From positions 448,001 through 512,000 of the forward strand of contig CAXXYH010000003.1 in the NCBI GenBank assembly GCA_963677925.2: a DNA stretch of 64,000 nucleotides. Direction: 5' to 3'. The translations under genes and the position numbers were made by a program. This stretch comes from Spirochaetia bacterium (GTDB lineage Bacteria > Spirochaetota > Spirochaetia > UBA9216). The notes below the pieces were generated by a model, which was given only the letters and a program-made list of their open reading frames with translations, had not been told where the DNA came from and searched no databases. The stretch's first letter is position 1, and every line of letters starts with the position of its first letter. Shown here piece by piece: positions 2,019 to 22,104 of the stretch.

Positions 2019-2972
2019 CTAGTAGCCTTTTTCAAAATCCACAGTAAAGTTCAGCGGTTTACCGGAAATATAATTTTTAAGGTTTCCAAAAATAACATCA
2101 AAAACACGATCCCGATAAGCATCTGACAGGTAAGAATTGTGAGGGGTTATTATAATATCAGCAGCATCCCATAATGGACTGTCTGCAGCCAGCGGTTCCT
2201 GTTTAAATACATCAAGAGCAGCCCCCCTGAGAACTCCTTCTTTCAGTTTAGCAAGAAGGTCTTCTTCATTGACTACAGAACCTCTTGAAATATTTATAAA
2301 GCAGGCATCTTTTTTCAACAGCGACAATGTTTTCTTGTTAATTAAATTCTCAGTCTCGGAAGTCGCAGGAATAGCAGAAACGAGAATATCACATTCAGGA
2401 AGAAGATTAGCAAGCTGAGCGAGACTGCAGCAGCGATCGAAGCCGGCAACAGCCCTCCCGCTTCTGTTGATTCCTGTAATCTCAACTCCGAAAGCCTTCA
2501 GTCTTGAAGCCGCTTCAACTGCAATCCCTCCAGTACCAAGAAAGATTATGTTCTTACCTGCAAGCTCAGATATATTCCGGTCTTCATTCCATATTTTTTT
2601 TCTCATATTATTATACATGGTAGAAGAGTTTTTAAGCAGCATGAGAATCATTGTGATAATCCATTCGGCTATTGGAATAGATGTAGCATTGCCGTTATTA
2701 GCAACAATAATACCGGCTTTTTTTATTTTTTCCCGGGGTGCCTGGTTGATTCCCTTACTGACTAGTTGAATAAATTTAAGCTTCTCAAGATTACTGATAT
2801 CAACTTTGTCAAATGGATCATAACAGATAAGAACTTCAGTGTTTCCGGGTATTTCATTTCCTGTTATTTTATCTTCATTTATATAAGCGACTTCATAACC
2901 TTCCAGCTCTATTTTACGGAAGTTTTCTCTTCCATATGGAAATGTAAATACCACTAGCGGTTTATTCTGCAT
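2019..2972 (-). CDS. D-isomer-specific 2-hydroxyacid dehydrogenase
   Basis: GTGGIA nucleotide-binding loop, INISRG, AALDVF-x2-EPL, ITPHNS. Confidence 0.92.
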   Translation of the reverse strand: MQNKPLVVFTFPYGRENFRKIELEGYEVAYINEDKITGNEIPGNTEVLICYDPFDKVDISNLEKLKFIQLVSKGINQAPREKIKKAGIIVANNGNATSIPIAEWIITMILMLLKNSSTMYNNMRKKIWNEDRNISELAGKNIIFLGTGGIAVEAASRLKAFGVEITGINRSGRAVAGFDRCCSLAQLANLLPECDILVSAIPATSETENLINKKTLSLLKKDACFINISRGSVVNEEDLLAKLKEGVLRGAALDVFKQEPLAADSPLWDAADIIITPHNSYLSDAYRDRVFDVIFGNLKNYISGKPLNFTVDFEKGY

Positions 2973-4146
2973 TATTACTCCCGAAGTTCAAAATTTTGTT
3001 AAAATAATCTGCAAACCTTTCAGCTCCTGCAGTCATGGTTTCAGCTGAATTGGCAAAAGCAAGTCTAATCCAGCCTTCCGCCTCATTACCGAATGCTGTG
3101 CCCGGAACTGTCAGGACCCCGCCTTCAGAAAGAAGTTTCAATGAAAAGTCTCTCGAATTGATTCCTGTTTTTCTAATATCGGCCATTATTCCGAGAGAGC
3201 CTCCGGACTTAATATAATCAAGATTTTCGATAGAGTCGAATTTATCACAGATAATATTACGCCGGCGCTCGTATTCCCTGCGCATCTGCTCAACACAATC
3301 CTGAGAACCCTTAAGTGCTGCAGCTCCGGCATGCTGAATGAATATCGGCAGACATGAGATAAGCGCCTGCTGCATTTTATAAAATCCTGAAACTAAATTA
3401 CTGCTTCCGAGAATATACCCAAGACGCCAGCCGGTCATGGCATATGTTTTAGACAGACTGTTTGCGATTAAGACCCTGCCTCTTAATTGAGGATGCTGCA
3501 TAGGGCTGTAATGAGTTTTTCCGTCGAAGACTATCTTTTCATATACCTCATCTGAAATAATCAGAACATTGCAGCCTTCAAGCGCGTGTGCAAGCCTCTC
3601 ACAGTATTCAAAATCGATTAACGTCCCTGACGGATTATTCGGATAATTTAGAATTACAGCTTTTGTTCTTGCAGTTACAGCTTCAGCAATTTCATCAGGA
3701 TTCATTAGAAATCCGTTTTCAGAAGAAGCCCTGATACGAATTACGCGGCCTCCGAACATTCTCACCTGCCCTTCGTAGCTGGTGTAGCTTGGATCGGACA
3801 CTATGACCTCATCTCCGCTGTCAAGAATTCCTGCAAGAATAATAAACATTGCTTCGACGCTTCCTGCAGTAGCCATGACATTATCGGGAGTAAAATCGAA
3901 ACCGAACTGATCGATATACTTTGCGGCTACTGCCTCTCTCAGCTCAACAAGTCCGGATTCTGTGGAATATTTGGTATTCCCGTCACGAAGTGATTTTACA
4001 GCTGCCTCCACTATATGTTCAGGAGTAGCAAGATCCGGATCCCCGTTACACATGTTAACAGCATCCGGATATTTCCGGTACATATCAAGCATTTCACGTA
4101 TGCCTGAAGCCGGCCATGTTTTAAGTAGTGTAGAAAATTGTTTCAT
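2962..4146 (-). CDS. PLP-dependent aminotransferase class I/II (AspC-like)
   Basis: NYPNNPSG, ISDEVYE, SLSKTYAMTGWRLG, C-terminal IRLAFA. Confidence 0.93.
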   Translation of the reverse strand: MKQFSTLLKTWPASGIREMLDMYRKYPDAVNMCNGDPDLATPEHIVEAAVKSLRDGNTKYSTESGLVELREAVAAKYIDQFGFDFTPDNVMATAGSVEAMFIILAGILDSGDEVIVSDPSYTSYEGQVRMFGGRVIRIRASSENGFLMNPDEIAEAVTARTKAVILNYPNNPSGTLIDFEYCERLAHALEGCNVLIISDEVYEKIVFDGKTHYSPMQHPQLRGRVLIANSLSKTYAMTGWRLGYILGSSNLVSGFYKMQQALISCLPIFIQHAGAAALKGSQDCVEQMRREYERRRNIICDKFDSIENLDYIKSGGSLGIMADIRKTGINSRDFSLKLLSEGGVLTVPGTAFGNEAEGWIRLAFANSAETMTAGAERFADYFNKILNFGSNNAE

Positions 4147-4205
4147 ATTAATCCAATTAACAGTTTTTATCTTGATTAGAGTGTTGAATGGTTATAGATT
4201 ATTAG

Positions 4206-4233
4206 CCGGTATTCAGTTACAGCTGAATACCGG
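4206..4233 (-). terminator. 11-bp perfect hairpin downstream of the ECF S-component gene (partial terminator or mRNA-stabilising stem)
   Basis: CCGGTATTCAG-ttacag-CTGAATACCGG; no clear U-tract on the minus strand. Confidence 0.55.
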
Positions 4234-4252
4234 TCTAATAATATCCGGCAGA

Positions 4253-4876
4253 TTAAATATCTGCAGCTTCTGCGACTTTATCTTCCTTAATATACTGTTC
4301 ACCGTATTTAAGTTTTGACAGGTATCTGCTGGATATTCTTTTAACAATAAGAACAGCAACAATGAGACTGAGAATCTTGTCTGCGCTTTCTGTAATAAAG
4401 TGGGTAGAAAATACAGCAGTCCAGATCTTGGTTCCTGTAGCGAGGAATCCTGCAGTGATCATTGAAGTTGCATGTCCTGTCATTCCACCAAAAAGTATTA
4501 CAGTGATGGGAGCGGCAGTACATGTAGCTACAAGAGCAATAATTACACCTGAAATACCAATCTTCCACCATTTGCCCATCATGCCTTTGGCAGAAAGCAG
4601 AGCAGCGAAGATACCGATTGCCATGTTTACAACTGAGTAAGGCAGGTATACAGGGTTAAAGATTGCATTAATAGCATTGGTCAGAAAACCAGTTATGATA
4701 GCAATCCAGGGACCAGCAACAATACCTACAAGTATTGTTCCGATTACATCAAGAAACACAGGGAGTCTCAGCAGCTGGGCAAGCTGAAATCCTACAATGT
4801 TGATAGCAACACATACTGGAATAAGCAGCAGTGAAACCAGGGTGAAGTCATCCTTGAAACTTCTTTTCTTTTCCAT
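4253..4876 (-). CDS. ECF transporter S component, QrtT/STY3230-like (nucleoside-associated) family
   Basis: About 6 TM; AIN-x-VG-x-QL-x3-LRLPVFLDVIGT..GP..G-x-LTN and LFGG-x-TG..DKILS motifs; next to ECF A, A' and T genes. Confidence 0.8.
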   Translation of the reverse strand: MEKKRSFKDDFTLVSLLLIPVCVAINIVGFQLAQLLRLPVFLDVIGTILVGIVAGPWIAIITGFLTNAINAIFNPVYLPYSVVNMAIGIFAALLSAKGMMGKWWKIGISGVIIALVATCTAAPITVILFGGMTGHATSMITAGFLATGTKIWTAVFSTHFITESADKILSLIVAVLIVKRISSRYLSKLKYGEQYIKEDKVAEAADI

Positions 4877-4929
4877 TTAATTTCTCCTCGTTATATATTT
4901 AATGCCCGTATGGACATCTATAACCATAA

Positions 4930-5877
4930 TTATTTGAATTTCGCTATCGATTTGATAACCAGATCGATAAACTTTTCTCTGTCAATTTTAAAAGCCACCT
5001 CTGCATTTGCAGGCTTTTTTGTCACGCCGTTAAAATCAACAACTGTACTGCCCAGAGTCGGTCCGTCGTTTGTATCGATTTCAACATGACAGTCAACCAT
5101 TCTGAAAATTGAAGGATCGACAATATAAGCCATGCAGCAGGCATCATGAAGGTGTACACCTTCTACCCAGTCCTCATCTGCCAGAAAATATCTGGTAGCC
5201 TTGGTGATAAAGAAATCAAGCAGATCGGCGAATATTTCTCCGGATTTTGTGCCAAGGTTCCGGAGTGACTTAATTTCATCAGGCATCATACTGGCCCGGT
5301 TTGTTACATCAAGTCCGAACATTGAAACTTTTACACCGCTTTTAAAAACTATGTCTGCAGCTTCAGGATCTACTAGAATATTAAACTCTGCAGCCGGAGT
5401 TATATTTCCTCCGAAACAGGCACCGCCCATAATGATTATCCGTTCAAGTTTTTCTTTTAATTCCGGATAAGCAAGAAGAAAAATAGCGACATTAGTAAGC
5501 GGACCTGTTGCAACCAGAGTAATTGGTTCCGGATGATTCCGGATAATATCTGCAGTAAAATCCCAGGCTTTCCCCTTGAATGCTGCTGTTGTCGGTTCCG
5601 GAAGTTCAGCACCATCAAGACCGGAATCACCGTGAATGTCGGCAGCAATCCGCAAATTTCTTGTCAGCGGTTTTGAAGCGCCGGGACATACAGTAATATC
5701 TTCTCTTTCCGCAAGTGCAAGAAGTTTTCTTGCGTTGTTGAATGTTTTTTCAGGGAGCTGATTACCTGCACAGGTAGTTATGCCCTTAACTTCTATTGCA
5801 TCATTTGCAAGGGCAATGAATAATGCTACAGCATCATCATGCCCCGGATCACAGTCAAAAATTATCGGTATTGCCAT
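4930..5877 (-). CDS. Nucleoside hydrolase (IU-NH/Rih family)
   Basis: DCDPGHDD, IHGDSGL, TGPLTN, AEFNI..DPEAA, LHDA. Confidence 0.95.
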   Translation of the reverse strand: MAIPIIFDCDPGHDDAVALFIALANDAIEVKGITTCAGNQLPEKTFNNARKLLALAEREDITVCPGASKPLTRNLRIAADIHGDSGLDGAELPEPTTAAFKGKAWDFTADIIRNHPEPITLVATGPLTNVAIFLLAYPELKEKLERIIIMGGACFGGNITPAAEFNILVDPEAADIVFKSGVKVSMFGLDVTNRASMMPDEIKSLRNLGTKSGEIFADLLDFFITKATRYFLADEDWVEGVHLHDACCMAYIVDPSIFRMVDCHVEIDTNDGPTLGSTVVDFNGVTKKPANAEVAFKIDREKFIDLVIKSIAKFK

Positions 5878-6698
5878 TATGCTTCCTTTAATCCTGTTTC
5901 ATTTTTTACAGCACTGATCATTTCAGTAACATCAAGAACGTTACCGGGCAGCCCCATTCGATATGCAACCCTACTGACATAGGGCTGTTTCAGCATGCTC
6001 TGTTTTAAAACATCGTGGTTCCAGAATGTTGCCCTTCTGTCTGAATCAGAGATAATTTTTTTGTTGGCCATTACAACGACTCTTTCAAAGTTCTTAACGA
6101 CAAACTCCATATCGTGTGTAATTGTAATTACCGTTTTACCCTGCTCCTTCAGGAATTTAAGTACATCTGCAAGAACTTCCATACCATAGAGGTCCTGTCC
6201 GGCTGTCGGTTCATCAAGAATGAGAACATCCGGATCATTTGCCATTATCGCTGCAATCGTTACAAACTTTCTTGTGGAGTAAGGAAGGTTATATGGATTT
6301 TCATTTAAATACGGACGTATCTTGGTAACATCAACAGCTGTGCGGACACGATTCTTAATCTCTTCGATCTGAAGTTTCATATACTTGGGACCAAAGGCAA
6401 CCTCGCTGTAAATAGAATCGTTAAAAATCTGATCATCCGGATTCTGGAAGATATACCCTACTTTTGAGGAAAGCTGAGCAACGGTATGATCATTAGTGTT
6501 CCATCCGTCAATTACAACTTCACCTTCCTGCGGTTTTAAAAGTCCATTCATCAGCTTAACAGTAGTTGTCTTCCCTGCACCGTTCTGACCGACTATTGCC
6601 AGGAATTCACCTTTGGCTACTTCAAGATTGATATTCTCAATCGCAGTAAAATCATTTGGATATGTAAAAGTTACATTCTTCAGTTCAATAAAACTCAC
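5877..6698 (-). CDS. ECF transporter ATPase (EcfA')
   Basis: GQNGAGKTT, FQNPDDQ, LDEPTAGQD, ITHDM; start set at the GTG overlapping the upstream stop (GTGA). Confidence 0.93.
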   Translation of the reverse strand: MSFIELKNVTFTYPNDFTAIENINLEVAKGEFLAIVGQNGAGKTTTVKLMNGLLKPQEGEVVIDGWNTNDHTVAQLSSKVGYIFQNPDDQIFNDSIYSEVAFGPKYMKLQIEEIKNRVRTAVDVTKIRPYLNENPYNLPYSTRKFVTIAAIMANDPDVLILDEPTAGQDLYGMEVLADVLKFLKEQGKTVITITHDMEFVVKNFERVVVMANKKIISDSDRRATFWNHDVLKQSMLKQPYVSRVAYRMGLPGNVLDVTEMISAVKNETGLKEA

Positions 6699-7555
6699 AG
6701 TACAGCCTCTTTTGTCAGTATTTTTTCCATCACGTTTATGCATTCATCTTCCGTGATCGCTACATCATCTACAGGCAGACCGCTGTTTTTGAGTGCAAGA
6801 CAAAGCTGTGCAAACTGTGGAATGGCAGTATTATGCTCAAGAACATTCTCGCTGGAGAGAACCTCCTTAGCAGGTCCGTCCATTACAATCTCACCATCAT
6901 CAAGAAGAATAATATGATCAGAGTACTCAGCAACCAGCTCAATCTTGTGTTCAACAAGTATGATGGTTTTACCCATTTCTTTCATAAGCTTGATAGTCTG
7001 AAAGACCTCTTCAGTACCGATAGGATCAAGCTGTGACGTAGGTTCATCAATTACAAGGACATCAGGTTCCATAACAAGGATTGATGCAAGAGCTACACGC
7101 TGCTTCTGTCCGCCGGAAAGAGCAAAGGGGTCTTTGTCTTTTAAGTATTCAATCTGCAGAAACTCGAACATCTTTTCTACACGCGCCTTAATTTCCTCAG
7201 GATCAACACCGAGGTTTTCAAGTCCGTATGCTACTTCTTCAAAAACTGTACCTTTAATACCGCTTATCTGAATAAAGGGATTCTGAAAGACATAGCCGAT
7301 TTTCATAGCAAGCTCACCCATACTCAGCTCACTCATGTCCTGACCGTCAAGAATAATCTCACCGTTCAGCTCACCCTTGTAAAAGTTGGGCACAAATCCC
7401 CTTAATGCGCTGCATAATGTTGTTTTACCACTTCCGTTACAGCCGATAATTGAACAGAACTCACCTTTTTCAATTGAAAAATTCAGGTTCTTGAGAACAT
7501 CGCCCTTGCTGGTCGGATATTTGTATGAAAGGTTTTTAACTTCTATAAGAGCCAT
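6695..7555 (-). CDS. ECF transporter ATPase (EcfA)
   Basis: GCNGSGKTT, FQNP, LSGGQKQR, IDEPTSQLD. Confidence 0.93.
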   Translation of the reverse strand: MALIEVKNLSYKYPTSKGDVLKNLNFSIEKGEFCSIIGCNGSGKTTLCSALRGFVPNFYKGELNGEIILDGQDMSELSMGELAMKIGYVFQNPFIQISGIKGTVFEEVAYGLENLGVDPEEIKARVEKMFEFLQIEYLKDKDPFALSGGQKQRVALASILVMEPDVLVIDEPTSQLDPIGTEEVFQTIKLMKEMGKTIILVEHKIELVAEYSDHIILLDDGEIVMDGPAKEVLSSENVLEHNTAIPQFAQLCLALKNSGLPVDDVAITEDECINVMEKILTKEAVL

Positions 7556-8298
7556 AATGCAATCCTCCCTGCGATAAGTCCTATAAGAATAATAAGCATG
7601 ACAATTTTGAGCGGCTTGTCGGCTCTTGTAAGTTCGATTTTATGAATCCTCGTTTTCTTGACCGGAGCTGTAAAAGCCCTTGATTCAAGTGTGATGGCTC
7701 TTTCTTCAGTATTGGCTATTGATGACAGAACCAGCGGCCCTAGCATCGGTATAAAGGCCTTTATTCTGACCATCAGACTGCCTTCGGTTTCAACACCTCT
7801 GGCCCTCTGGGCATCCATAATAACCGTTGACTGTTTTTTCATTTCAGGAATCATCTGCAGTGTTGCAAGAATGACGTAGGTTGCAGTCGGTGAAAAACCA
7901 TTCTGCTCAAGAGCAAGAACGAAATCTTTCACTTCGGTGATCCTGAAAAAGAGAACGAAAGAACAGGCTATTGCAAGAACCCTCGAAGACATCTTGAACC
8001 CGAACTGGATTCCTTCATTAGTAATTCTGAAGATTCCCTTTCTCCATACTTCATCCACTCCAGGATAAAAGAACATCTGCATTACAAGAATCAGGATTAC
8101 CAGAATCAGAATTGATTTCCTTGAAAACTTAAGATAATCCCTCAGGCAGCCTGCCATTGCAGCAATTACCGCCGCTATTAAAAAGCAGGAATAGGCATAA
8201 ATGTAGCTCGGAATAATTACTGAAGACACAGCTATCAGCAGGGCGAGATACAGCTTGGTTGTCGGATAAAGCTGAAGAACAGCATTATTTTTACTCAT
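7543..8298 (-). CDS. ECF transporter T component (CbiQ/EcfT)
   Basis: TM helices plus AQRARG and LESRAF coupling motifs; start moved to MSKNN. Confidence 0.92.
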   Translation of the reverse strand: MSKNNAVLQLYPTTKLYLALLIAVSSVIIPSYIYAYSCFLIAAVIAAMAGCLRDYLKFSRKSILILVILILVMQMFFYPGVDEVWRKGIFRITNEGIQFGFKMSSRVLAIACSFVLFFRITEVKDFVLALEQNGFSPTATYVILATLQMIPEMKKQSTVIMDAQRARGVETEGSLMVRIKAFIPMLGPLVLSSIANTEERAITLESRAFTAPVKKTRIHKIELTRADKPLKIVMLIILIGLIAGRIALWLL

Positions 8299-9115
8299 CA
8301 GTCCCCTCTTTTTTATACTTCTCTGCTGTTTGCCAGCATGTAGTAAATTCAACATTTTCAAAAGATTTTATATGCTTAATAAGATTATCCAGAACTTTCA
8401 TTCTTGCCGGGCGTCCAATCACCTGCGGGTGGCAGGTAAGAATGAAACAGATGTCTGAATTTTCTTCTTCCATAAACTCTTCATACAGGGCATCAAATTC
8501 AGCAATCCAGAATTCCTGCACAGCAGAAACCGGCTGTATCGCCTTACCCGGAATTCTTACCGTGTAAAGCCAGAAGGCTGCATCATCGAGTACCCAGTGA
8601 ATTGGAAGTTCAACGATATTCGTCTTGCGCTCAAACACCTGAAGATGCCCTATACGGTCTGTATGCATCATATTGCTTGAATACTCAAATCCTATATCAA
8701 GAAGGATATCCAGTGTATTTTCACTGAACTCCCATGCTGGAGATCTATAACCTTTAGGCTTCTTTCCAGTCAGCTTTTCAAGAATCTCATTGGTTCTTGT
8801 AAGCTCTTCCTTTTCTGCATCAGCAGAAGGAAGTTTGTCCGGATATGTATGGCTGTAACTGTGATTGCAGATCTCGTGTCCGGCTGTATCTATTTTCTTT
8901 ATCTGCCCGGGATACCTTTCAGCAATAATTCCGGGAACAAAAAATGTAGCAGGGACTTCATTTCTTTCAAGAACTTTCATTATTCTAGGAAGCCCTTCAA
9001 TAATTCCGTAAGTTCCAAGAGAGCGGGTAACAGGAAGATGATCAAGCTCACGGGAAGCCCAGAGTGATTCTCCGTCGACATCAAAGGTAAGCATTACGGG
9101 CATTTTTTTCTTCAT
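8291..9115 (-). CDS. Polysaccharide deacetylase (CE4) family hydrolase, PuuE/HpPgdA-like, cytoplasmic
   Basis: LTFDVD, ATFFVPG, HSYSH, GYRSP, TCHPQVIGR; no signal peptide. Confidence 0.88.
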   Translation of the reverse strand: MKKKMPVMLTFDVDGESLWASRELDHLPVTRSLGTYGIIEGLPRIMKVLERNEVPATFFVPGIIAERYPGQIKKIDTAGHEICNHSYSHTYPDKLPSADAEKEELTRTNEILEKLTGKKPKGYRSPAWEFSENTLDILLDIGFEYSSNMMHTDRIGHLQVFERKTNIVELPIHWVLDDAAFWLYTVRIPGKAIQPVSAVQEFWIAEFDALYEEFMEEENSDICFILTCHPQVIGRPARMKVLDNLIKHIKSFENVEFTTCWQTAEKYKKEGTDE

Positions 9116-12800: not shown

Positions 12801-12809
12801 TTCAAAAAT

Positions 12810-13910: not shown

Positions 13911-14015
13911 CTTGTATTCCTCCAAGTTAAATTATTAAAAAAGTAAATACTTCTGTTTCCTAATTTATAAGTTCCGCTCTTCTCCTCCTAAATTTAGGTT
14001 AGTTATATAATCTGC

Positions 14016-15944
14016 TCATGCATGAAGCTTTTCTGCCAGCCAGCCAAGATTTAAATCATACAGCTTGCCCCTGGACGGAATGCCTTTATCATCCCACCCT
14101 CTCATCTCAAAAAGATCTTTTATGCCGTCGGCCAGATTCTTTTTATCTACCGCATAATAATTGGAATGTTCATTTGCAAGATCTTCATGGCTCCTCTGTG
14201 AAAGAGCATCTTCACTTGCTGCAGAACCGTGCAGTATATTAAAGGCACGTCCCATATTTTCAGCTCGTTCTCCGGCTTTCATAATTTCGTAAAGGCTTGT
14301 ATATTCCCAGCCTGTTGAAGCACGTAAAAGTTCAACAACCGTATTAAGGCTTATTACTCCTCGTGGAGCAAATACAAGTATGCACATACCCGCACAATTC
14401 TGAAAGCTGGTCCATTCTGAAACAGTTTTAACATTACGGGCCTTTTTCCAGGAAACTTCTGCAGGACTTATGGGTTCGTAAATCCCGATACCGCTTAGTT
14501 TATCCAGAACTATTCCAGGATTTGATATCATTGTGTCATGAACTGTGTACATGTGGTCGGTAGCATTGGCTGCAGTAGAGTATGCAAATGCAAGACCGGT
14601 TTTTGTCCGTGCATCGTGAAGAGCGTATTCCTGCTTTCTGCTCGTATTAAGATAGGCTTTGCTGCCTTTCCCAATCTTCTCAGCAGCTCTGAATGAACCT
14701 TCAGCAAGCAGAGATGAAAAGTTATCGGCCCGCATGGCTATTCTTTCAAGGAGAGTTAATACTGCGTACGAGTTTCCGAATTCAAGTCTAAGTCCATTGG
14801 TAAATTCTGTATCAATCAATCCGTTTTCAAAACATTCCATTGCAAAAGCAATAGTTCCGCTGACAGAAATAGTGTCCATGCCGAAACGGTTGCAAAGCTC
14901 ATTGGCTTTTGAGATAAGTTTTAGATCGGCCATCATGCAGTTTGCACCGAATCCTGCAATTGTTTCATATTCAGGACCGCCGAAAGCCGGATCAATCGAA
15001 AGTGAATCGTCGCTGACATCTACAACACGCTTACATCTTACAGGACAGGCAAAACAGCCTTCCCGCTTGCTCATGATAGTCTCTGCAAGTTTCTGCCCGG
15101 TAATTTCTTCTGCGTGTGCATTCTCACCGTATCTAAAATTCCTTGACGGAAACATACCTGCAGCATTAAGTGTGGAGATGCCGCCCGATGTGCCGAAGTC
15201 AAACAGTCCACGGCTTAAGGGTTCATTCTTGTAAACAGCCAGATATTCTTTTCTTAAATCAGATATCTTTTCAGGATTTGCGGTTTTTATCTCTCCGCTG
15301 CCCTTTACTGCAATTGCCCTGAGATTCTTTGAACCCATAACCGCGCCCATTCCATTGCGTCCGTTATAATGTTTTAGATTATTGGTTATACAGGCGTACT
15401 TAACCAGATTTTCACCTGCAGGGCCAATCTGAAGAACAGAGGCTTTCTGTTCACCAAGCTCATCTCTTATCAGCTGCTGAACCGTACCGGTTTCTTTGCC
15501 CCAGAGATCAGCTGCATCATTAATCTCAATATCAGAGTCGGCAATGCTGAGGTAAACCGGTTTTTCCGCTTTTCCTTCTATAATAACCGCATCCCATCCG
15601 GCCTTTTTAAGTTCTGGGCCCCAGAAACCGCCCGCTTCCGACTGGCCGAAACCGCCGGTAAGGGGTGATTTTGCTCCTACGGTATACCTGGGTGTTCCTG
15701 CAATTGGTATACCTGTTAAAACACCAGTAGCAAAAATCAATTTATTTTCAGCACCTAATGCATCTGCATCAGGAGATACTTCATTTAAAAGATAATGAGC
15801 AATAATACCCTTCCCGCCCATATACATTCTGTAAAAGGTCTGATCAGGAGTTTCTATTGTTATCTCTGAAGTACTCAGATTAACTCTGAGTATCTTTCCC
15901 GTATATCCGTAAATTTTATTCTCTTCCATCATAAAAAAAATCAT
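14016..15944 (-). CDS. aor: Aldehyde:ferredoxin oxidoreductase (tungsto/molybdopterin AOR family)
   Basis: GYTGKILRVNLS, AKSPLTGG, GMGAVMGSKNLRA, C-x2-C-x3-C, GPEYET, GMDTIS. Confidence 0.93.
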   Translation of the reverse strand: MIFFMMEENKIYGYTGKILRVNLSTSEITIETPDQTFYRMYMGGKGIIAHYLLNEVSPDADALGAENKLIFATGVLTGIPIAGTPRYTVGAKSPLTGGFGQSEAGGFWGPELKKAGWDAVIIEGKAEKPVYLSIADSDIEINDAADLWGKETGTVQQLIRDELGEQKASVLQIGPAGENLVKYACITNNLKHYNGRNGMGAVMGSKNLRAIAVKGSGEIKTANPEKISDLRKEYLAVYKNEPLSRGLFDFGTSGGISTLNAAGMFPSRNFRYGENAHAEEITGQKLAETIMSKREGCFACPVRCKRVVDVSDDSLSIDPAFGGPEYETIAGFGANCMMADLKLISKANELCNRFGMDTISVSGTIAFAMECFENGLIDTEFTNGLRLEFGNSYAVLTLLERIAMRADNFSSLLAEGSFRAAEKIGKGSKAYLNTSRKQEYALHDARTKTGLAFAYSTAANATDHMYTVHDTMISNPGIVLDKLSGIGIYEPISPAEVSWKKARNVKTVSEWTSFQNCAGMCILVFAPRGVISLNTVVELLRASTGWEYTSLYEIMKAGERAENMGRAFNILHGSAASEDALSQRSHEDLANEHSNYYAVDKKNLADGIKDLFEMRGWDDKGIPSRGKLYDLNLGWLAEKLHA

Positions 15945-16186
15945 CCACCGCCAAAAATCGGAAAAACTTCCACGAAGTCTCCATCAGTTAAATTAACTGT
16001 ATCGTTAATATTTCTGTTTAAACCGTTAACTCTGATTAAAGCGGTATAATCTTTTTTTACGCCGCATTTCATAAGCAGGTCCTGAACAGAAAAAACATCA
16101 TCTGTTTCAAGTTCCAGAATTCCCTCCCTGTTTCCGGAAAGGAATATAAAAAATGAATAAAGCTTAACCCTTATCTTCACTGACAT
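15941..16186 (-). CDS. MoaD/ThiS family sulfur carrier
   Basis: 81 aa ubiquitin-like protein, VNG, C-terminal FPIFGGG; adjacent to AOR. Confidence 0.88.
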   Translation of the reverse strand: MSVKIRVKLYSFFIFLSGNREGILELETDDVFSVQDLLMKCGVKKDYTALIRVNGLNRNINDTVNLTDGDFVEVFPIFGGG

Positions 16187-17429
16187 CCTTCAGCAATGGT
16201 ATTGTAGCTCCAGCATCGGGCATCACAAGAACCGAGGCTCTCTCACCCATTTTACCGACAGCAGCATCGAGTGCCGCCTGCAGTGACTTAAAAGGGATAA
16301 AGTTAATAGACTTTACAGTTTCATCACCCAGATCACTGACCATAAATATTTCCGCCTTCTGCAGTATCATGGCAATGGCCGCAGCCTTGTGGCCGCCTAG
16401 TACAAAATTGGATTCAATTTCAGCCAGCATTTCAGAAGGTGTTTTATCCTTCATCCATGATTCAAAGGTTTTCTCGCCAAAACCCTCAGCAGCTGATGCG
16501 GCAAGAATAATTATTCCGCCGTCTTTTACAGCATATTTGGCATTATCAAGGCCCTTTTGAGCCTGATAAAGATTTATATCTTTCGGATATCCGCCCGGAG
16601 ACGCAATTACAATATCAGCCTTTGAAGCAAACTCAACACCGTTCATCCGGTCAAGATACCTGCAGCCGTTTCTGTGAGCCTCAAGATAATGACCTGCAAC
16701 TGCTTTAACAATCTCTTTCTTATTATCAAGAATCACGTTTAAAATAAAATCAATTTTGATAAACTCACCAACCTGGTCTATATCCTGTCTTACAGGATTA
16801 TCATCAAGCCGGCCCGCTGCAGCATTCTTATTTGTCATATTAGAATGGTTGGCCTGAATAGCCGCATGACTGGAGACTCCGGGCATCAGAGCTTTTGCTC
16901 CGCCGGAATATCCTGCAAAATAATGGAACTCAATATTACCCACACAGATAAGCCTGTCCGCTTCCGCTACCGGTCTGAATATATCTACAGGTGTTCCGTT
17001 CCTGCACGCTCCGAGATTAATACAGAGGTCCATTTCTGAATCAAGCAGGTTTATTCCGCTTGAATAAACATCATCACCGGTCAGGTATTTCTTTTCATCT
17101 TCAGTATGTCTGCGGTGACTTCCCAGTGCAAAAACAATGGTAATATCACTGTCACTGACTCCTGCACTGTGAAGACGTTTAACAAGTTCGGGTATAACAA
17201 GTCTTCCCGGAAAGGGCCTTGTTATATCACTTGTAACAATCACAACAGACTCACCAGGTTTAACTATATCCTCAAGTCTTTCAGATCCTGCCGGATTATC
17301 AAGGGCATAATTAATTTCATCAGCTCCGCTTCTATCATGCACTATTTCATTGGGAATCAATGTTCCCGCATAATTTTTTTCAGGTATATCAACAGAGATA
17401 GTTTTTTTGCCGTATTTAAACTCAAACAT
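16164..17429 (-). CDS. larA: Nickel-pincer (NPN)-dependent lactate racemase homolog (LarA family 2-hydroxyacid racemase/epimerase)
   Basis: SDITRP, ALGSHR, HYFAGYSGGAK, ANH, GGYPKDINLYQAQKG; start moved to MFEFKYG after GAGGAGG. Confidence 0.92.
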   Translation of the reverse strand: MFEFKYGKKTISVDIPEKNYAGTLIPNEIVHDRSGADEINYALDNPAGSERLEDIVKPGESVVIVTSDITRPFPGRLVIPELVKRLHSAGVSDSDITIVFALGSHRRHTEDEKKYLTGDDVYSSGINLLDSEMDLCINLGACRNGTPVDIFRPVAEADRLICVGNIEFHYFAGYSGGAKALMPGVSSHAAIQANHSNMTNKNAAAGRLDDNPVRQDIDQVGEFIKIDFILNVILDNKKEIVKAVAGHYLEAHRNGCRYLDRMNGVEFASKADIVIASPGGYPKDINLYQAQKGLDNAKYAVKDGGIIILAASAAEGFGEKTFESWMKDKTPSEMLAEIESNFVLGGHKAAAIAMILQKAEIFMVSDLGDETVKSINFIPFKSLQAALDAAVGKMGERASVLVMPDAGATIPLLKDVSEDKG

Positions 17430-18792
17430 CAGCCCAGACCTCCTCATCGGAAGGCATTACCGCTCCGTCTATCACTGTTGAAATTCGTGTAATATTCATT
17501 AAGTGTGTGTAATTAAAATTATCAGAGATAATATTGTTTCCCCATGTGCCGCATCCGAAGATAGTAGTTGGAACAAGACCATTCAGATAGCTTCCGCCGC
17601 TCATGGTAGCTCCGACCTGATTTACAAGCAGCCGGCTTACATTCAGGTTCTCACCGGCATATCTGACATGTTCATCATTTCCGGAATGTATAACAACAGA
17701 ATGTCCCATACCTTCAGCTTCTATATTCTCAGCCGCGATTGCAACCGCCTCTTCAAATGTTTCGTATCTTTTAAGTCCAATTACCGGAAACAGCTTCTCT
17801 CTGCAGAAAAGTTCCTCTTCTCCGGTGCTGTAGACTTCAATAACTATAAGCCGAACAGTCTCTTCGAGTTCAATTCCTGCATCAGAAGCAAGCTTTGATA
17901 CAGGCTGTCCGACTACCTCGCTTGAAACATTTCCGTCTTCATCGAATATCAGGTTCCTGAGTCTCAAGGCTTCATCAGAATTTCTGACGAAGTACGCGCC
18001 CTGAGACTCAAGTTCTTTTACTGTTTCAGCAAAATCATCATTATGAACGAGAATCATCTGCTCAGCAGAACTGATAATTCCGTTGTCAAAAATCCTTCCG
18101 TTTATTATTTTCTCAACCGATTCGCTTATACTGACGCCCCTGTCTATTATGCACTGCGCATTTCCTGCACCGACACCGAATGCAGGTTTTCCGCAGGAAT
18201 ATGCAGCCTTTACTGTTGTCGATCCTCCGATGGCAACAACAACATCAACTGAACTCATAAGTTCACTGCTTTTCAGCACATTAGGATCTTCTATTGTCTG
18301 TATAAGATTTTCGGGTGCTCCGAGAGTCTTAAGGTTCATATTAATAAGTTCAGCAGCATATGCGGCGCATTTTTTCGCACGCGGATGAGGAGCGATAATT
18401 ATGGAATTACGCGCTTTTACTGCAAACATTGCAATACACATAGGTGTTGTTATGGGATTGGTGCATGGTGTTACCGCTCCCACAACACCCATAGGTTTTG
18501 CTATCTTTATAATTCCGTTTACAGCATCTTCTTCCACAGACCCTACAGATTTTTTACCCTTAAGATTGTGCCAAAGCATGCTTGCAGTCCTGCGGTTCTT
18601 TTCAACTTTATCGCCGTAAACTCCCATGGAGGTTTCATCAACTGCCATGCTTGCCAGAACTTCCGCATTATCAAAAACAGTTTTTGCAATAGCTTTTACG
18701 ATTTCATCTATGTATTTCTGTGAGAATGTTTCTATTTTTTTCTGTGCGGCCGAAGCTTTCTGCACCATATCTGAAATTACATCAAATTCCAT
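17422..18792 (-). CDS. CoA-acylating aldehyde dehydrogenase family (SucD/SauS/EutE-like); catalytic Cys replaced by Ser
   Basis: PCTNP, HPRA, KAAYSCGKPAFGVGAGN, FDNGIISSAEQ, EKLFP, GHS, GCGTWGNN. Confidence 0.88.
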   Translation of the reverse strand: MEFDVISDMVQKASAAQKKIETFSQKYIDEIVKAIAKTVFDNAEVLASMAVDETSMGVYGDKVEKNRRTASMLWHNLKGKKSVGSVEEDAVNGIIKIAKPMGVVGAVTPCTNPITTPMCIAMFAVKARNSIIIAPHPRAKKCAAYAAELINMNLKTLGAPENLIQTIEDPNVLKSSELMSSVDVVVAIGGSTTVKAAYSCGKPAFGVGAGNAQCIIDRGVSISESVEKIINGRIFDNGIISSAEQMILVHNDDFAETVKELESQGAYFVRNSDEALRLRNLIFDEDGNVSSEVVGQPVSKLASDAGIELEETVRLIVIEVYSTGEEELFCREKLFPVIGLKRYETFEEAVAIAAENIEAEGMGHSVVIHSGNDEHVRYAGENLNVSRLLVNQVGATMSGGSYLNGLVPTTIFGCGTWGNNIISDNFNYTHLMNITRISTVIDGAVMPSDEEVWADV

Positions 18793-18811: not shown

Positions 18812-20161
18812 CTACTCTGTAACTGCTTTTATTGCTTTCTCAAGGATTTCCAGACCAACTTTAAGCTGCTCATCGGTAACAACAAGCGGCATAAGAGCTC
18901 TTACGATCTGATTATATGAGCCGGCAGCCTTGAGAACCAAGCCGGCCTTCCTGCACTCGGCAAGTATTTTATTTGCAGTTTCAGGATCCGGTTCTTTAGA
19001 AATCCTGTCTTTTACAAATTCAAGTGAAACCATTGCTCCGGTTACTCGGTAAGTTCCGATTGCCTTATACTTTTCAAACCAGTCTTTGAATGCAGCTTCG
19101 CATTTTTCGCCGATTGCCATGGCCTTGGAAGCATAGTCGTCTCTTTTTAGTATTTCGATTACTTTTAAAGAAGATGCACAGGCCACAGGATTTCCGCCGT
19201 ATGTACCGCCGATTTCACCTGCAGTCAAAGATTCCATAATCTCTTCTCTTGCTGTAACAGCGCTTATCGGAAGTCCTCCGCCCATAGCCTTTGCTGTAAT
19301 AAGAATATCAGGATAAACACCTGCCTCTTCCCAGTACTCTGTCGCAAACATTTTTCCTGTTCGGCAGTAACCGGTCTGAACTTCATCTGCTATAAGAAGT
19401 ATTCCGTATTCATCACAAAGCTGTCTGAGACCCTTTATGTACTCGATAGGAGGTACAATAAAACCGCCTTCGCCCTGGATAGGTTCGATAATTACAGCAG
19501 CAACTTTCTGAGGAAGGATGTAGTCAACAAACATATACCGCAGTTTTTCCAGATAATAATCAGCAAGCTGCTCTTCAGCGATACCCGGTTCAGCCCGGTA
19601 AGTATTAGGGAATTCAGCGCGGTGAACACCCGGTGCAAGCGGCATAAAACCGGCCTTGTATACCTGGCCGCTGGTGAGGGTCATAGCCATAAAGGTTCTG
19701 CCGTGGAAACATCCTGAATATGCGATTATATCAGTACGTCCGCTGAACTTTCTTGCAATCTTTATAGCGTTATCAACTGCCTCGGAACCGCTGTTGAAAA
19801 ATGCAGTTCTTTTCTTGAAATTTCCCGGAGTAATGTCATTTATAAGTTCTGCAAGCTCAATATACTCCGAATAGTGCAGTGTATTTATCTGCGGATGAAA
19901 GTATCTTCCAGCCTGCTCCTGTACAGCCTTGACCACCTCTTCATTGCTGTATCCGATATTCAGAGCGCCGATTCCTCCGACCCAGTCCATTATGATATTA
20001 CCGTCAAGGTCGACTATCATAGCCCCCTCGCCTCTGTCAATTACAAAGGGCGCTGCACATCCGATTGATGATGGAATGGCTTTATTTCTTCTTTCAATTA
20101 CTGCCTTTGATTTGGGTCCCGGCAGTTCAGTAACTATTTTTGGTAAAGATTCTCTAAGCAA
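18812..20161 (-). CDS. Class III (omega-amino acid) aminotransferase, GabT/DavT-like
   Basis: NSGSEAV, FHGRT, EPIQGEGG, DEVQTG, AKAMGGG, GGTYGGNP; TTG start with GGAG RBS. Confidence 0.93.
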   Translation of the reverse strand: MLRESLPKIVTELPGPKSKAVIERRNKAIPSSIGCAAPFVIDRGEGAMIVDLDGNIIMDWVGGIGALNIGYSNEEVVKAVQEQAGRYFHPQINTLHYSEYIELAELINDITPGNFKKRTAFFNSGSEAVDNAIKIARKFSGRTDIIAYSGCFHGRTFMAMTLTSGQVYKAGFMPLAPGVHRAEFPNTYRAEPGIAEEQLADYYLEKLRYMFVDYILPQKVAAVIIEPIQGEGGFIVPPIEYIKGLRQLCDEYGILLIADEVQTGYCRTGKMFATEYWEEAGVYPDILITAKAMGGGLPISAVTAREEIMESLTAGEIGGTYGGNPVACASSLKVIEILKRDDYASKAMAIGEKCEAAFKDWFEKYKAIGTYRVTGAMVSLEFVKDRISKEPDPETANKILAECRKAGLVLKAAGSYNQIVRALMPLVVTDEQLKVGLEILEKAIKAVTE

Positions 20162-20194: not shown

Positions 20195-20212
20195 TTGCAT
20201 TTTTTGTGCCAA
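20195..20212 (-). promoter_or_regulatory. Sigma54 (RpoN) -24/-12 promoter driving the catabolic operon
   Basis: Minus strand reads TTGGCACAAAAAATGCAA: GG-N10-GC spacing, 34 nt upstream of the aminotransferase start, facing away from a bEBP gene. Confidence 0.88.
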
Positions 20213-20321
20213 AAAACCACCATTACAGGTATTTTTATTTGAATTGGCTTAATTTTGCTGATATTTCCTTTGATTTTTGCATTTTTGTAAAATATTTTAA
20301 ATTTTTGAAGGATTGATAAAA

Positions 20322-20377
20322 CTACATTTTTGTAGGAGATAATTTATTTAGTTTAAAAGTATTAAGTTTGTAATACT
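20322..20377. promoter_or_regulatory. Candidate bEBP upstream activator sites
   Basis: Palindromes CTACA-tttt-TGTAG (20322-20335) and AGTATTA-agtttg-TAATACT (20358-20377), about 110-165 bp upstream of the sigma54 box across an AT-rich spacer. Confidence 0.4.
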
Positions 20378-20433
20378 CTATTAAAATTATTATTATTTTA
20401 TGGTATTCTTGATACATCATCGGAGGGATTTTT

Positions 20434-22104
20434 TTGACTGAAAGAATAGATATAAACCTGTTTATCGAACCGGCAATACTGCTGGATGCTGATTATCAGC
20501 TCATAAAAACTAATCAGGCTTTTACCAGTTTTTTCAGCCGGGGCAACACTCTTGAGCAGGCGATAAAACTTATAAAAACAAGAGATGAAAAAAAAAATCA
20601 GGACTTTCTGCTTTTCATCTACGAAGATAAAGAGTTTATAATACATGTCTACAGTCTTTCAGATCAGCAACAGCTGCTCTGCCTGATTTCTGATTCAGCC
20701 CATATTGAAGACGCAGCCTTCTCTCTCTCATCAATTCAGTCAATGAAAGACGAGTTCCTCAACATGCTCAGTGTACTTCATGACGACTTTGTAATAATCG
20801 ACCGCTATGGAGTAATTGTCAGCGCAATGCCTAATTTTGAGACAATGTACGGTATTTCAAGGCAGGAAGCTATCGGGAAAACAATTTTTGAAATGGAAGA
20901 AAAAAAGATTTTTAATCCTTCCGTAGCTATACGAGTATTTAAATCGGGAAATACAGAGACCCTCCTGCAGCTTACCGGAGCAGGAAAATATCTCATGTGT
21001 ACCGCCATCCCGATAAAAGATAAAGATGGAAATATTGAAAAAGTCGTCAGTTATACACGTGATATTACAAAATATCAGACACTTAAGGATGAATTTGAAA
21101 ACCTCGAGGATACTTTAAAATTATACAGTGCCGAAATTGACCGTCTGCGAAAGGATCGTGATCCGGTTCCTTCTATAATAGGCCGCTCACAGGTAATCAA
21201 AAATATATCGGCTACACTTCTCAAAATTTCACGGTTTGATGCCAACGTACTTTTTCTTGGAGAATCAGGTGTAGGCAAAACAATGTTTGCCAAGATTATG
21301 CATTCCCAAAGCGGCAGAAGTGAAGGCCCGTTTATTGAAATAAACTGCGGAGCGATCCCCGAAAGTCTGCTTGAATCGGAACTATTCGGCTATGAAAAGG
21401 GCGCATTCAGCGGAGCCAGCAAAGAAGGTAAACCAGGACTGATTGAACTTGCAAATGAGGGTACTCTCTTTCTTGATGAAATTGGAGACCTTCCGCTTCA
21501 TATGCAGGTAAAGCTTTTAAAAGCCATACAGGAAAAGAAGATAATGCGGCTGGGCGGAGCAAATCTGAAGGAAGTAGATTTCAGACTTATCGCCGCTACA
21601 AATAAAAACCTGGAAGAACTTGTTAAGGACGGCTCATTCAGGGAAGATCTGTATTACCGGCTTAATGTAATAACCATCAAGATCCCCGGCCTGCGAGACA
21701 GGAAGGAAGATATTTTTTCACTGGCTAATCATTTTGTTGAAGTTATCGGAAAGAAATACGGACTCACAAGAACTCTTTCAGGAACCGTAATTGACTATCT
21801 TGTTGAATACGACTGGCCGGGTAATATCAGAGAACTTGAGAATCTGATAGAAAGAATGATACTAACATCCGATGACTATATGATAAGCGAGGAACAGCTG
21901 CCGACAAAAATTAAGGCCAGTATCTTTCATACAACAAGCAGCAGCAGTTCACTCAAAGATATTCTTGAATCGGTTGAGCGCAGACTCATAATTGATGCGT
22001 ACAAAAAACACGGAACCTCAACCGGAGTAGCCGCCGAATTGAATATAAGTCAGCCTTCAGCTTCTAACAAGATCAACAAATATATAAAAGAGACAGAAGG
22101 CTAA
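20434..22104 (+). CDS. Sigma54-dependent transcriptional activator (PAS + AAA+ + HTH)
   Basis: GESGVGKT, INCGAIPESLLESELFGYEKGAFSGA, FLDEIG, FREDLYYRLNV, WPGNIREL; N-terminal PAS. Confidence 0.95.
   Translation: MTERIDINLFIEPAILLDADYQLIKTNQAFTSFFSRGNTLEQAIKLIKTRDEKKNQDFLLFIYEDKEFIIHVYSLSDQQQLLCLISDSAHIEDAAFSLSSIQSMKDEFLNMLSVLHDDFVIIDRYGVIVSAMPNFETMYGISRQEAIGKTIFEMEEKKIFNPSVAIRVFKSGNTETLLQLTGAGKYLMCTAIPIKDKDGNIEKVVSYTRDITKYQTLKDEFENLEDTLKLYSAEIDRLRKDRDPVPSIIGRSQVIKNISATLLKISRFDANVLFLGESGVGKTMFAKIMHSQSGRSEGPFIEINCGAIPESLLESELFGYEKGAFSGASKEGKPGLIELANEGTLFLDEIGDLPLHMQVKLLKAIQEKKIMRLGGANLKEVDFRLIAATNKNLEELVKDGSFREDLYYRLNVITIKIPGLRDRKEDIFSLANHFVEVIGKKYGLTRTLSGTVIDYLVEYDWPGNIRELENLIERMILTSDDYMISEEQLPTKIKASIFHTTSSSSSLKDILESVERRLIIDAYKKHGTSTGVAAELNISQPSASNKINKYIKETEG

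Follow-up and report, generated by a model that had tools for sequence, protein, structure and literature searches.

The 64,000-nucleotide stretch of contig CAXXYH010000003.1 from a Spirochaetia bacterium (assembly GCA_963677925.2, forward-strand positions 448,001 to 512,000; hereafter the window) carries 18 minus-strand open reading frames (ORFs) that run in one direction from position 20161 to 2019, behind a sigma-54-type promoter and a divergent plus-strand gene (20434-22104) for a bacterial enhancer-binding protein (bEBP). Our best reading of this gene set, which we put forward tentatively, is that of an operon, controlled by sigma-54 and the bEBP, for the catabolism of a small unsaturated nitrogen-ring compound that bears or yields a carboxylate, with pyrimidines as the likeliest representatives. 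The parts of this proposal differ in strength. Judged from the company that its genes keep, the general logic (reduce the ring, open it, remove a carbamoyl or acyl group, process the amino acids) is somewhat probable; that pyrimidines are the substrate is the most attractive specific assignment and, taken by itself, still an unlikely one. We infer the reactions and the substrate from what is observed: the gene families, the promoter motif, the co-occurrence of genes at related loci, and a Cys-to-Ser change.

In the proposed pathway, a transporter would import the ring compound, an iron-sulfur flavoprotein supplied with reduced ferredoxin would saturate the ring, a hydrolase with the CE4 fold would open it by cleaving the cyclic amide bond, and a deacylase of the M20 family would strip the remaining carbamoyl or acyl group and free an amino acid. 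The roles of these three enzymes are proposed because the gene company of the CE4 protein matches that of known reductive ring-cleavage pathways.

The recurring core module

Family assignments for the ORFs of the window rest on Pfam and NCBIfam models with their curated cut-offs. Homologues of the CE4 protein (953 clustered ones at E ≤ 1e-20) formed the basis of the comparison with other genomes: an alignment of 34 of 120 listed homologues served as the query of a genome scan that gave 64 loci, each with at most 10 kb on either side of the CE4 gene. Genes were compared across these loci by tblastn; 36 loci in which CE4 is at least 47% identical are called close here, and the other 28 are more distant. 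Annotated neighbourhoods comprise the recurrent clusters, nine loci and, elsewhere, one representative per cluster of the remaining ORFs.

The most faithful partner of CE4 is the Fe-S flavoprotein, a homologue of which lies near it in 30 of the 36 close loci versus none of the 28 distant ones. When 71 CE4 sequences were placed in a FastTree phylogeny, the flavoprotein-linked ones made up 31 of the 35 rows of a single group (support 99). The CE4 proteins of L001, L002 and the window itself form the sister of that of L003, a topology to be read with caution given the method and the long branches. An M20 gene of any kind is present at 26 of the 36 close loci by ORF clustering, and the subtype of the window, at more than 50% identity, at six (L001, L002, L003, L005, L013, L014). 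TRAP transporter genes join the CE4/flavoprotein pair at nine of the 36. The distant CE4 loci (34-46% identity) offer mixed contexts and no named pathway.

The window and a Spirochaetia metagenome-assembled genome (MAG) chromosome, L001, share 90.8% nucleotide identity over 17.7 kb, and all 16 genes within reach at L001 are 85-100% identical; conservation of outer genes could be seen only within the 10-kb flanks of CE4, and the aminotransferase gene AT3 and the bEBP gene of L001 lie outside. A Spirochaetales MAG (L002) retains ten genes, from the aldehyde dehydrogenase to CE4, before the contig stops. Outside L001 and L002 the set breaks up: homologues of the LarA-family racemase, the small MoaD-like protein and the aldehyde:ferredoxin oxidoreductase AOR (96% identity in L001, 78% in L002) occur nowhere else among the loci, the 2-hydroxyacid dehydrogenase HADH is found at L001 only among the close loci, and the ECF transporter/nucleoside hydrolase module recurs outside L001 solely at the Treponema locus L014. 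The operon of L003 consists of bEBP, TRAP, flavoprotein, M20 and CE4 genes only. The 18-gene set is thus modular and co-conserved only among close relatives, and the recurring core is a transporter, the Fe-S flavoprotein, CE4 and M20. The sequence-only reading had named gene-neighbourhood conservation as a check on its proposal of a single system, and the outcome is divided: the full set is kept only in L001 and L002, while the core module recurs widely. Sinanaerobacter chloroacetimidivorans (L024) is a cultured carrier of the core.

The flavoprotein combines the flavodoxin-like FMN_red fold with the compact four-Cys cluster motif, the two features of the Isf family; every one of the 30 aligned homologues retains the motif, although two are irregular at its third position. 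Its matches in the Protein Data Bank (PDB) are WrbA-like proteins only, with no solved Isf among them. The sequence-only reading had recognised the family and left the protein without a role; its tight association with CE4 makes it probably the low-potential ring reductase of the pathway.

CE4, which had been described as CE4/PuuE-like, does belong to the CE4 fold, and its best solved relative is HpPgdA (139.9 bits), PuuE allantoinase reaching only 70.9 bits. Residues D12, D14, H85, H89, R124 and H229, whose roles we presume from the NodB-type motifs, are invariant across the 34 aligned homologues. A Protein Atlas look-up returned "polysaccharide deacetylase" clusters only. The cyclic imidase HxnM has HpPgdA as its nearest structural relative; HxnM opens 3-hydroxypiperidine-2,6-dione and acts after an OYE ene-reductase and a short-chain dehydrogenase (SDR) and before an amidase, on a route that ends in 2-hydroxyglutarate (PMC9304392). 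CE4 is also 36% identical (E 7e-51) to a CE4 protein of the Paenarthrobacter plasmid pYJN5-3, whose neighbours are hydantoinase, racemase and cytosine-permease genes. This protein is taken to be DdaH, since its gene context agrees with that of ddaH1, the product of which converts a 2,4-dioxoimidazolidine (a hydantoin ring) to the ureido acid (PMC12927932). Because its nearest characterised relatives, HpPgdA (akin to HxnM) and the presumed DdaH, belong to a ring-opening group, we propose that CE4 is a ring-opening amidohydrolase. An Rfam search of positions 1-24000 at E ≤ 1 gave a single match, an ssnA motif at 8843-8895 (+), antisense within the CE4 gene; it lies below threshold (20.4 bits against a gathering score of 37.3; E 0.37) and is probably due to chance.

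A protein search of plasmids with CE4 yielded 301 records, in which the gene order on Variovorax, Paracoccus and Leisingera plasmids is MarR, ABC, CE4, SDR, SDR, amidase; on an Agrobacterium plasmid ABC, SDR, amidase, CE4; and on a Sulfitobacter plasmid ABC, CE4, SDR, SDR and an OYE-type flavin oxidoreductase. An LLM-class flavin oxidoreductase adjoins CE4 on a plasmid of the haloarchaeon Haloferax. Across lineages, CE4 is accompanied by a transporter, an oxidoreductase of varying family and a second amide hydrolase, the last being M20, amidase or M28. The 987-residue protein P0122 is a natural fusion of CE4, a PA domain and an M28 aminopeptidase, and separate CE4 and M28 genes are adjacent at four Chloroflexia loci (L041-L044). 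In the window the second hydrolase is the M20 enzyme, for which we propose the hydrolysis of N-carbamoyl or N-acyl amino acids on the basis of its ArgE/DapE-type sequence.

Promoter, regulator and peripheral genes

Table 1. Coordinates of the 18 operon genes and of the associated regulatory features in the window
Feature	Position	Strand	Supporting match or property
D-isomer-specific 2-hydroxyacid dehydrogenase (HADH)	2019-2972	-	2-Hacid_dh_C 173 bits; no NCBIfam model at cut-off
Class I aminotransferase, AspAT-like (AT1)	2962-4146	-	Aminotran_1_2 216.9 bits
Strong hairpin without U tract, just past the ECF S stop codon	4198-4242	-	-25.3 kcal/mol, z = -4.69
ECF S component	4253-4876	-	CD3073-family model 113 bits (cut-off 180); ECF_trnsprt 27.7 bits (cut-off 30.7)
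RihA-like pyrimidine ribonucleoside hydrolase	4930-5877	-	IU_nuc_hydro 336 bits
ECF A' component	5877-6743	-	ABC_tran (Pfam)
ECF A component	6695-7555	-	ABC_tran (Pfam)
ECF T component	7543-8361	-	CbiQ (Pfam)
CE4-fold hydrolase, HpPgdA / cyclic imidase / DdaH / PuuE group	8291-9115	-	PDB 3qbu 139.9 bits
M20 ArgE/DapE-type deacylase	9137-10312	-	TIGR01910 287 bits (cut-off 217.6, passed)
Iron-sulfur flavoprotein	10309-10962	-	FMN_red 107.7 bits; CxxCxxC...C
TRAP transporter DctM	10973-12253	-	Pfam and NCBIfam subfamily cut-offs passed
TRAP transporter DctQ	12254-12745	-	Pfam and NCBIfam subfamily cut-offs passed
TRAP transporter DctP, lipoprotein	12810-13911	-	Pfam and NCBIfam subfamily cut-offs passed
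Aldehyde:ferredoxin oxidoreductase (AOR)	14016-15944	-	AFOR_N 261 bits, AFOR_C 343 bits
Small MoaD-like protein ending GGG	15941-16186	-	TIGR01687 26.3 bits (cut-off 49.5); no Pfam match
LarA-family nickel-pincer malate racemase, Mar2 type	16164-17447	-	NF052593 548.4 bits (cut-off 500, passed)
SucD-like CoA-acylating semialdehyde dehydrogenase	17422-18792	-	PDB 8cei (SucD) 471.7 bits, E 1.9e-140
Class III (omega) aminotransferase, GabT-like (AT3)	18812-20161	-	Aminotran_3 390 bits
Sigma-54-type -24/-12 promoter, TGGCACAAAAAATGC	20197-20211	-	TGGCAC-N5-ATGC, one mismatch to TGGCAC-N5-TTGC
Two 15-nt direct repeats (family D2), 25 nt apart	20298-20337	.	87% identity between copies; about 100-140 nt upstream of the promoter
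bEBP with PAS, AAA+ (GAFSGA loop) and HTH	20434-22104	+	Sigma54_activat 227.5 bits; PAS_9

Most neighbouring genes of the operon overlap or are separated by 0-21 nt; there are four wider gaps, of 53 nt (4877-4929), 64 nt (12746-12809), about 104 nt (13912-14015) and 106 nt (4147-4252). The promoter lies 36 nt upstream of the TTG start codon of AT3, the first gene, and is the sole intergenic site with one mismatch that adjoins the cluster. Across the entire window, sigma-54 motifs are no commoner than expected (32 matches with at most two mismatches against 46 expected), and a general promoter and terminator scan gave counts that did not exceed those of shuffled sequences; the promoter is credible because of its position and of the motif at related loci, not because of motif counts. 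On the CE4 strand of the 36 close loci (614 kb), the strict motif occurs 13 times, and seven of these occurrences, at seven of the 36 loci, fall within 200 nt upstream of CE4, where random windows had a mean of 0.15 and a maximum of 3 in 2000 draws. Looser matches, for which there is no such control, also precede AGCS, flavoprotein, M20 or DctP genes in related loci. A GG-N10-GC promoter before the first gene together with an adjoining AAA+ activator is the arrangement that sigma-54 requires, and control of the operon by this factor is predicted from it; an rpoN gene was absent when the ORFs of the window were scanned with domain models.

The nearest NCBIfam model of the bEBP is PrdR (429 bits, under its cut-off of 795), and homologues with 52-55% identity adjoin CE4 in six related loci. 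The two direct repeats are candidate binding sites of the activator. Downstream, on the same strand, a gene for a hemerythrin-domain protein (1526-1930) starts 88 nt past the last operon gene with its own GGAGG; the stretch between the two contains no terminator-like site, and this gene may be a 19th co-transcribed one. The hairpin behind the ECF S gene, equalled in stability by none of 200 shuffles, is a possible attenuator, processing site or weak terminator.

The description of a co-oriented 18-gene set behind a sigma-54 promoter, with a divergent PAS-bEBP, is confirmed by these results, and the gene families named by the sequence-only reading are all supported by Pfam or NCBIfam, that of MoaD weakly. 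Several of its finer calls changed. The racemase does belong to the LarA family and is now assigned to the Mar2 type, with 398 bits against PDB 6d6z (Mar2) and 239 bits against the lactate racemase LarA; Mar2 racemises malate (PMC7583248). The racemase of the window carries the stretches GSHRRH, FHYF..GGAK and SSH. We take these to be functionally important in it. Domain-model scans found no larB, larC or larE in the window. Both gene families of the two postulated aldehyde-oxidising routes are present; the acylating dehydrogenase, however, lacks the catalytic Cys. Its alignment with solved SucD spans the full length (residues 6-453 to 7-452 of 8cei) and places Ser241 at the position of Cys242, which is presumably the catalytic nucleophile. 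Both L001 and the window have AGT as the codon, while the more distant homologues of L002, L007 and L035, the other CE4 loci with SucD-like genes, encode Cys. Judged from this exchange, the enzyme of the window/L001 lineage is probably impaired or altered in function; the gene may be dying, or its product may have an altered chemistry. The MoaD-like protein, the gene of which is kept alongside AOR in L001 and L002, probably supports the supply of the tungsten/molybdopterin cofactor for AOR.

For the S component, the proposed likeness to QrtT, and with it queuosine salvage, finds no support: the CD3073 family is its only match, and the protein stays under every family cut-off. The A and A' components score 231-248 bits with ECF ATPase models, again under the cut-offs. 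The transporter is a dedicated one, the S, T, A and A' genes all lying within one locus. An S homologue (39% identity) directly follows CE4 at L014, and the ECF and hydrolase module stands directly behind CE4 in two spirochaete lineages in which it is only 29-41% identical. The hydrolase reaches 386 bits with the RihA model (cut-off 433), and its top three PDB matches are all RihA (299-309 bits). AT3 attains 441-484 bits with models of GABA transaminases, all under cut-off, 250 bits with the diaminobutyrate transaminase (dat) model and 347 bits with solved GabT (PDB 4ffc), and is proposed by similarity as a transaminase of the beta-alanine/GABA type; homologues lie near CE4 in L004, L013, L014 and L039. 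AT1 gives about 300-314 bits with AspAT models, under their cut-offs, and its homologues (45-49% identity) stand beside CE4 in 12 loci other than L001. The likeliest start of DctP is the ATG at 13911, with GGAGG upstream, and its solved relatives in the PDB bind varied carboxylates.

In the remainder of the window, an RND efflux set (outer-membrane factor, AcrB-type pump, HlyD-type adaptor; 22101-27725, minus strand) converges on the bEBP gene, so that the host is a diderm. At 28819-30666 and 27781-28680, both on the plus strand, lie an ORF of unusual architecture, which joins an HMGL-like domain (pyruvate carboxyltransferase/aldolase fold) to a dCache sensor domain, and, next to it, an HTH regulator with a B12-binding domain. 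A peroxidase of the size of catalase-peroxidases (42813-45020) and a YaaA peroxide-stress protein (55663-56424), both on the minus strand, together with the hemerythrin, suggest regular exposure to oxygen of an organism that also uses AOR/ferredoxin-type enzymes.

Substrate and competing explanations

The three substrate ideas of the sequence-only reading fared differently. A variant pyrimidine or ureide route is the best fit among them, on account of the 36% identity of CE4 to the presumed DdaH, the RihA-like hydrolase and the YgeY-like M20 that scores under the cut-off. Nothing in the evidence speaks for nucleosides of the lysidine, acp3U or t6A type, and the N-acetylated diamino-acid idea gains only the indirect support of EctC-like genes in three related loci. 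The gene families agree with the general order of reactions that had been envisaged: deribosylation, hydrolysis of a ring or amide, omega-transamination, oxidation of the aldehyde, alpha-transamination, and the reduction and racemisation of a keto acid.

If the substrates are pyrimidines, the ECF transporter would import pyrimidine ribonucleosides, which the RihA-like hydrolase would split into base and ribose, and the TRAP system would take up a carboxylated ring such as orotate. A uracil-type ring would yield beta-alanine, to be converted by AT3 into the semialdehyde, which the tungsten enzyme AOR would oxidise; an orotate-type ring would yield aspartate, from which AT1 would form oxaloacetate, HADH D-malate and Mar2 L-malate. 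Pyrimidines are the most economical choice because they would give a place to the RihA-like hydrolase with the ECF transporter, to the GabT-like AT3 with the aldehyde oxidisers, to the AspAT-like enzyme with HADH and the malate racemase, and to TRAP. The idea draws on the enzymology of orotate fermentation and on an orotate-binding TRAP protein. In favour of a C4 end-product are, besides the Mar2 type of the racemase and the AT1 homologues next to CE4, a malic enzyme and an Asp-Al_Ex permease that are encoded at L035.

Several observations weigh against this proposal. Every score that would name a substrate falls under its curated cut-off, the M20 enzyme for instance reaching 202.7 bits with the YgeY model against a cut-off of 321, and we know of no FMN_red-family protein that reduces a pyrimidine ring. 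The annotated neighbourhoods contain no nucleobase permease, no PydA or PydB homologue and no other pyrimidine-specific gene. Among many Clostridia, CE4 and AT1 are accompanied by an AGCS carrier, the flavoprotein, a P-loop protein, a VorB-like 2-oxoacid:ferredoxin oxidoreductase, butyrate kinase, a PduL-type transacylase and M20. Carriers of amino-acid type are found in most related loci (AGCS in 14), the alpha subunit of the 2-oxoacid:ferredoxin oxidoreductase in up to 12, and other oxidoreductase subunits, the kinase and the transacylase in 6-8. These genes, which pyrimidines explain poorly, point to an alpha-amino acid that bears a side chain and not to aspartate. Treponema loci possess CE4, M20 and AT3 and lack the flavoprotein. 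AOR, LarA, HADH and the nucleoside module are confined to spirochaetes and may act on other substrates, a split at the hairpin (4198-4242) could leave AT1 and HADH outside the operon, and the SucD-like enzyme has the Ser241 described above. Three loci, finally, encode EctC-like cupins that score above the cut-off of the ectoine-synthase subfamily model (138 against 128 bits). The P-loop protein (228-239 residues; GHxGSGKTEF) lies between the flavoprotein and 2-oxoacid:ferredoxin oxidoreductase genes in eight loci, such as L023, L024 and L028, and matches no Pfam or NCBIfam model.

We consider it unlikely that the operon serves the catabolism of blocked (N-acetyl, N-formyl or N-carbamoyl) amino acids, diamino acids or small peptides, with neither a ring nor a reduction. 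CE4 would then remove the acyl block, M20 or M28 would split the next amide, the amino acids would pass to the aminotransferases, and the flavoprotein would be an electron carrier or a defence against oxygen or peroxide. CE4 is a de-N-acetylase by family and M20 of the ArgE/DapE type; a CE4-M28 aminopeptidase fusion exists; an S58 peptidase, an enolase resembling N-acylamino-acid racemase and M28 are neighbours at some loci; and the frequent amino-acid carriers and the Treponema loci without flavoprotein also count in its favour. The nearest characterised CE4 relatives, however, open rings, and some oxidoreductase adjoins CE4 in very different lineages, where it is hard to see as a bystander.

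Equally deserving of discussion, and in our estimate improbable, is a mosaic of self-sufficient units that share a promoter or were assembled by chance and have no single substrate: a GABA-type shunt (AT3, SucD-like enzyme, AOR), the use of D-malate (LarA), the TRAP/flavoprotein/M20/CE4 group, the scavenging of nucleosides for ribose, and AT1 with HADH. Conservation of the core alone outside close relatives, the restriction of LarA, AOR and HADH to L001 or L002, and the reduced operon of L003 are what such a mosaic would lead one to expect, as are the strong hairpin before AT1 and HADH, the apparent decay of the SucD-like gene, and the PfkB sugar kinase that the ECF/hydrolase module of L014 has of its own. 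Against this stand the overlapping or abutting genes across the borders of the modules, gaps that hold neither a second sigma-54 site nor a terminator-like site on the coding strand, the gene order kept in L001 over the aligned 17.7 kb and in L002 up to the contig end, and the recurrence of AT1, AT3 and SucD-like homologues next to CE4 in unrelated bacterial lineages.

Anaerobic catabolism of ectoine or N-acetyl-diaminobutyrate by non-orthologous enzymes seems distinctly unlikely to us. TRAP would import the compound, CE4 would open the cyclic amidine, M20 would deacetylate the product, and an omega-transaminase with an aldehyde oxidiser would lead to aspartate, or to the 2-hydroxy analogue and hence malate, a C4 end-product compatible with Mar2. 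The ectoine Doe/Eut pathway starts with uptake by TRAP and reaches aspartate by hydrolysis of the ring, deacylation, omega-transamination and oxidation of the aldehyde; the two hydrolases, the omega-transaminase, the aldehyde oxidiser and the AspAT-like enzyme of the operon mirror this scheme, and none of the families that define it (M24 DoeA, AstE/AspA-type DoeB, EctB-like DoeD) is found among the 18 genes. An M24 creatinase-like gene lies beside L031. The structures 2vpn and 3fxb, which we take to be ectoine TRAP binding proteins, are distant DctP matches of about 100 bits. The EctC-like cupins, of 124-128 residues (L019 17880-18266, L021 8236-8610, L026 18089-18466), sit in Clostridia catabolic clusters with CE4, flavoprotein, branched-chain-type ABC transporter and oxidoreductase genes, and may act in the hydrolytic direction. 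This explanation, once considered as the leading one, was set back by the far greater similarity of AT3 to GabT than to diaminobutyrate transaminases, by the absence of EhuB from the 60 best solved relatives of the amino-acid binding protein of L013, and by a literature search that found nothing on anaerobic ectoine breakdown; it also leaves the flavoprotein and the nucleoside module without a role, and many organisms that carry the module are gut or digester bacteria. Pantothenate or pantoate, hinted at by SSS/TRAP similarities and the VorB-like oxidoreductase, was dropped because AT1, the flavoprotein and the second hydrolase stay unexplained.

Returning to the nitrogen-ring proposal, its boldest form is that flavoprotein, CE4 and M20 constitute an unrecognised ferredoxin-driven route for pyrimidine-type rings (orotate, uracil, cyclic ureides or imides) in Clostridia, Spirochaetes and Desulfovibrio, under sigma-54 control and non-orthologous to the Pyd enzymes at every step; we regard this as doubtful, yet worth stating. 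The trio might supply genes for ureidosuccinase and carboxymethylhydantoinase, two old orphan activities of orotate fermentation. If this is true, anaerobes hold a second, unrelated enzyme set for reductive nitrogen-ring cleavage with a small Fe-S flavoprotein as ring reductase, and functions would follow for a large CE4 family that genomes mis-name "polysaccharide deacetylase" for many orphan Isf-type flavoproteins, and for a set of sigma-54 regulons in bacteria of the gut and of sediments. There would also be a further anoxic route from nucleic-acid debris to C3/C4 acids and ammonia. Even with a substrate other than a pyrimidine, this is an uncharacterised module that is both conserved and regulated.

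Comparison with known systems

The opinion that this combination of genes corresponds to no described pathway still holds: our literature searches turned up none, and they found no paper on CD3073 and nothing relevant on ureidosuccinase or orotate degradation. A paper on Clostridiales sigma-54 regulons does not mention components of the cluster.

Of the systems that resemble parts of the operon, the iprodione steps of Paenarthrobacter share with it the presumed DdaH, a CE4 enzyme that opens a hydantoin, and a following amidohydrolase, DuaH, annotated as a hippurate hydrolase, which cleaves the ureido acid (PMC12927932). They differ in belonging to the xenobiotic pathway of an aerobe, in having no reductase step, and in their hydantoinase, racemase and cytosine-permease neighbours.

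The fungal nicotinate branch (HxnT ene-reductase, HxnW SDR, HxnM imidase, HxnN amidase) is similar in that HpPgdA is the nearest structure to both HxnM and the CE4 of the window, and in that a ring is saturated and opened and the product de-amidated, to end as a 2-hydroxy-dicarboxylate (PMC9304392). The bacterial plasmid clusters of CE4, two SDRs and amidase or OYE resemble this branch. It is aerobic, however, with monooxygenases upstream, an OYE reductase and an amidase as the second hydrolase (PMC9304392), whereas the window has the Fe-S flavoprotein and M20 instead, and amino acids, not only hydroxy acids, seem to result.

E. coli and C. difficile break down uric acid reductively by means of a flavin/Fe-S reductase that is active only together with the ring hydrolase encoded next to it; the M20 enzyme YgeY cleaves the ureido group, and the family of the reductase varies by lineage (PMC12507026). 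The proposed reductase, the ring hydrolase and M20, along with lineage-dependent reductase families, are what the two systems would have in common; the operon differs in having no homologues of XdhD, SsnA, HyuA, YgeW or YgeX, and in an M20 that falls under the YgeY cut-off.

The closest parallel in overall chemistry is the extended Pyd pathway, in which reductase, dihydropyrimidinase, ureidopropionase, beta-alanine aminotransferase and malonic semialdehyde dehydrogenase (PydA, PydB, PydC, PydD and the dehydrogenase) act in turn, and of which Clostridia have a variant with a ferredoxin-dependent pyrimidine reductase, PydAc (PMC7332683). The order that we propose for the operon, from ring reduction to semialdehyde oxidation, is that of Pyd, and the anaerobic Pyd variant is fed by ferredoxin (PMC7332683), as would be the case here. 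Where Pyd has PydA and PydB, the operon has the flavodoxin-fold Fe-S flavoprotein and CE4: none of its 18 genes matches DHO_dh, the fold of the FMN domain to which ferredoxin domains are joined in PydA, and none encodes a dihydropyrimidinase of the amidohydrolase superfamily like PydB. The window has a single, weakly matching DHO_dh-family ORF (61803-62786, minus strand; 65.6 bits), which might be PydA/PreA-like or PyrD-like. It lies 40 kb away from the 18 genes, in a stretch (61803-63999, minus strand) that also encodes an AsnC-type regulator and a class V aminotransferase. For the later steps, M20, the class III aminotransferase and the SucD-like enzyme or AOR are present, and none passes a model specific to PydC, PydD or the semialdehyde dehydrogenase. 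The operon further adds TRAP, ECF, nucleoside hydrolase, malate racemase and AOR to what Pyd possesses. The kind of pathway that we propose is already known; it is the set of enzymes that would be new.

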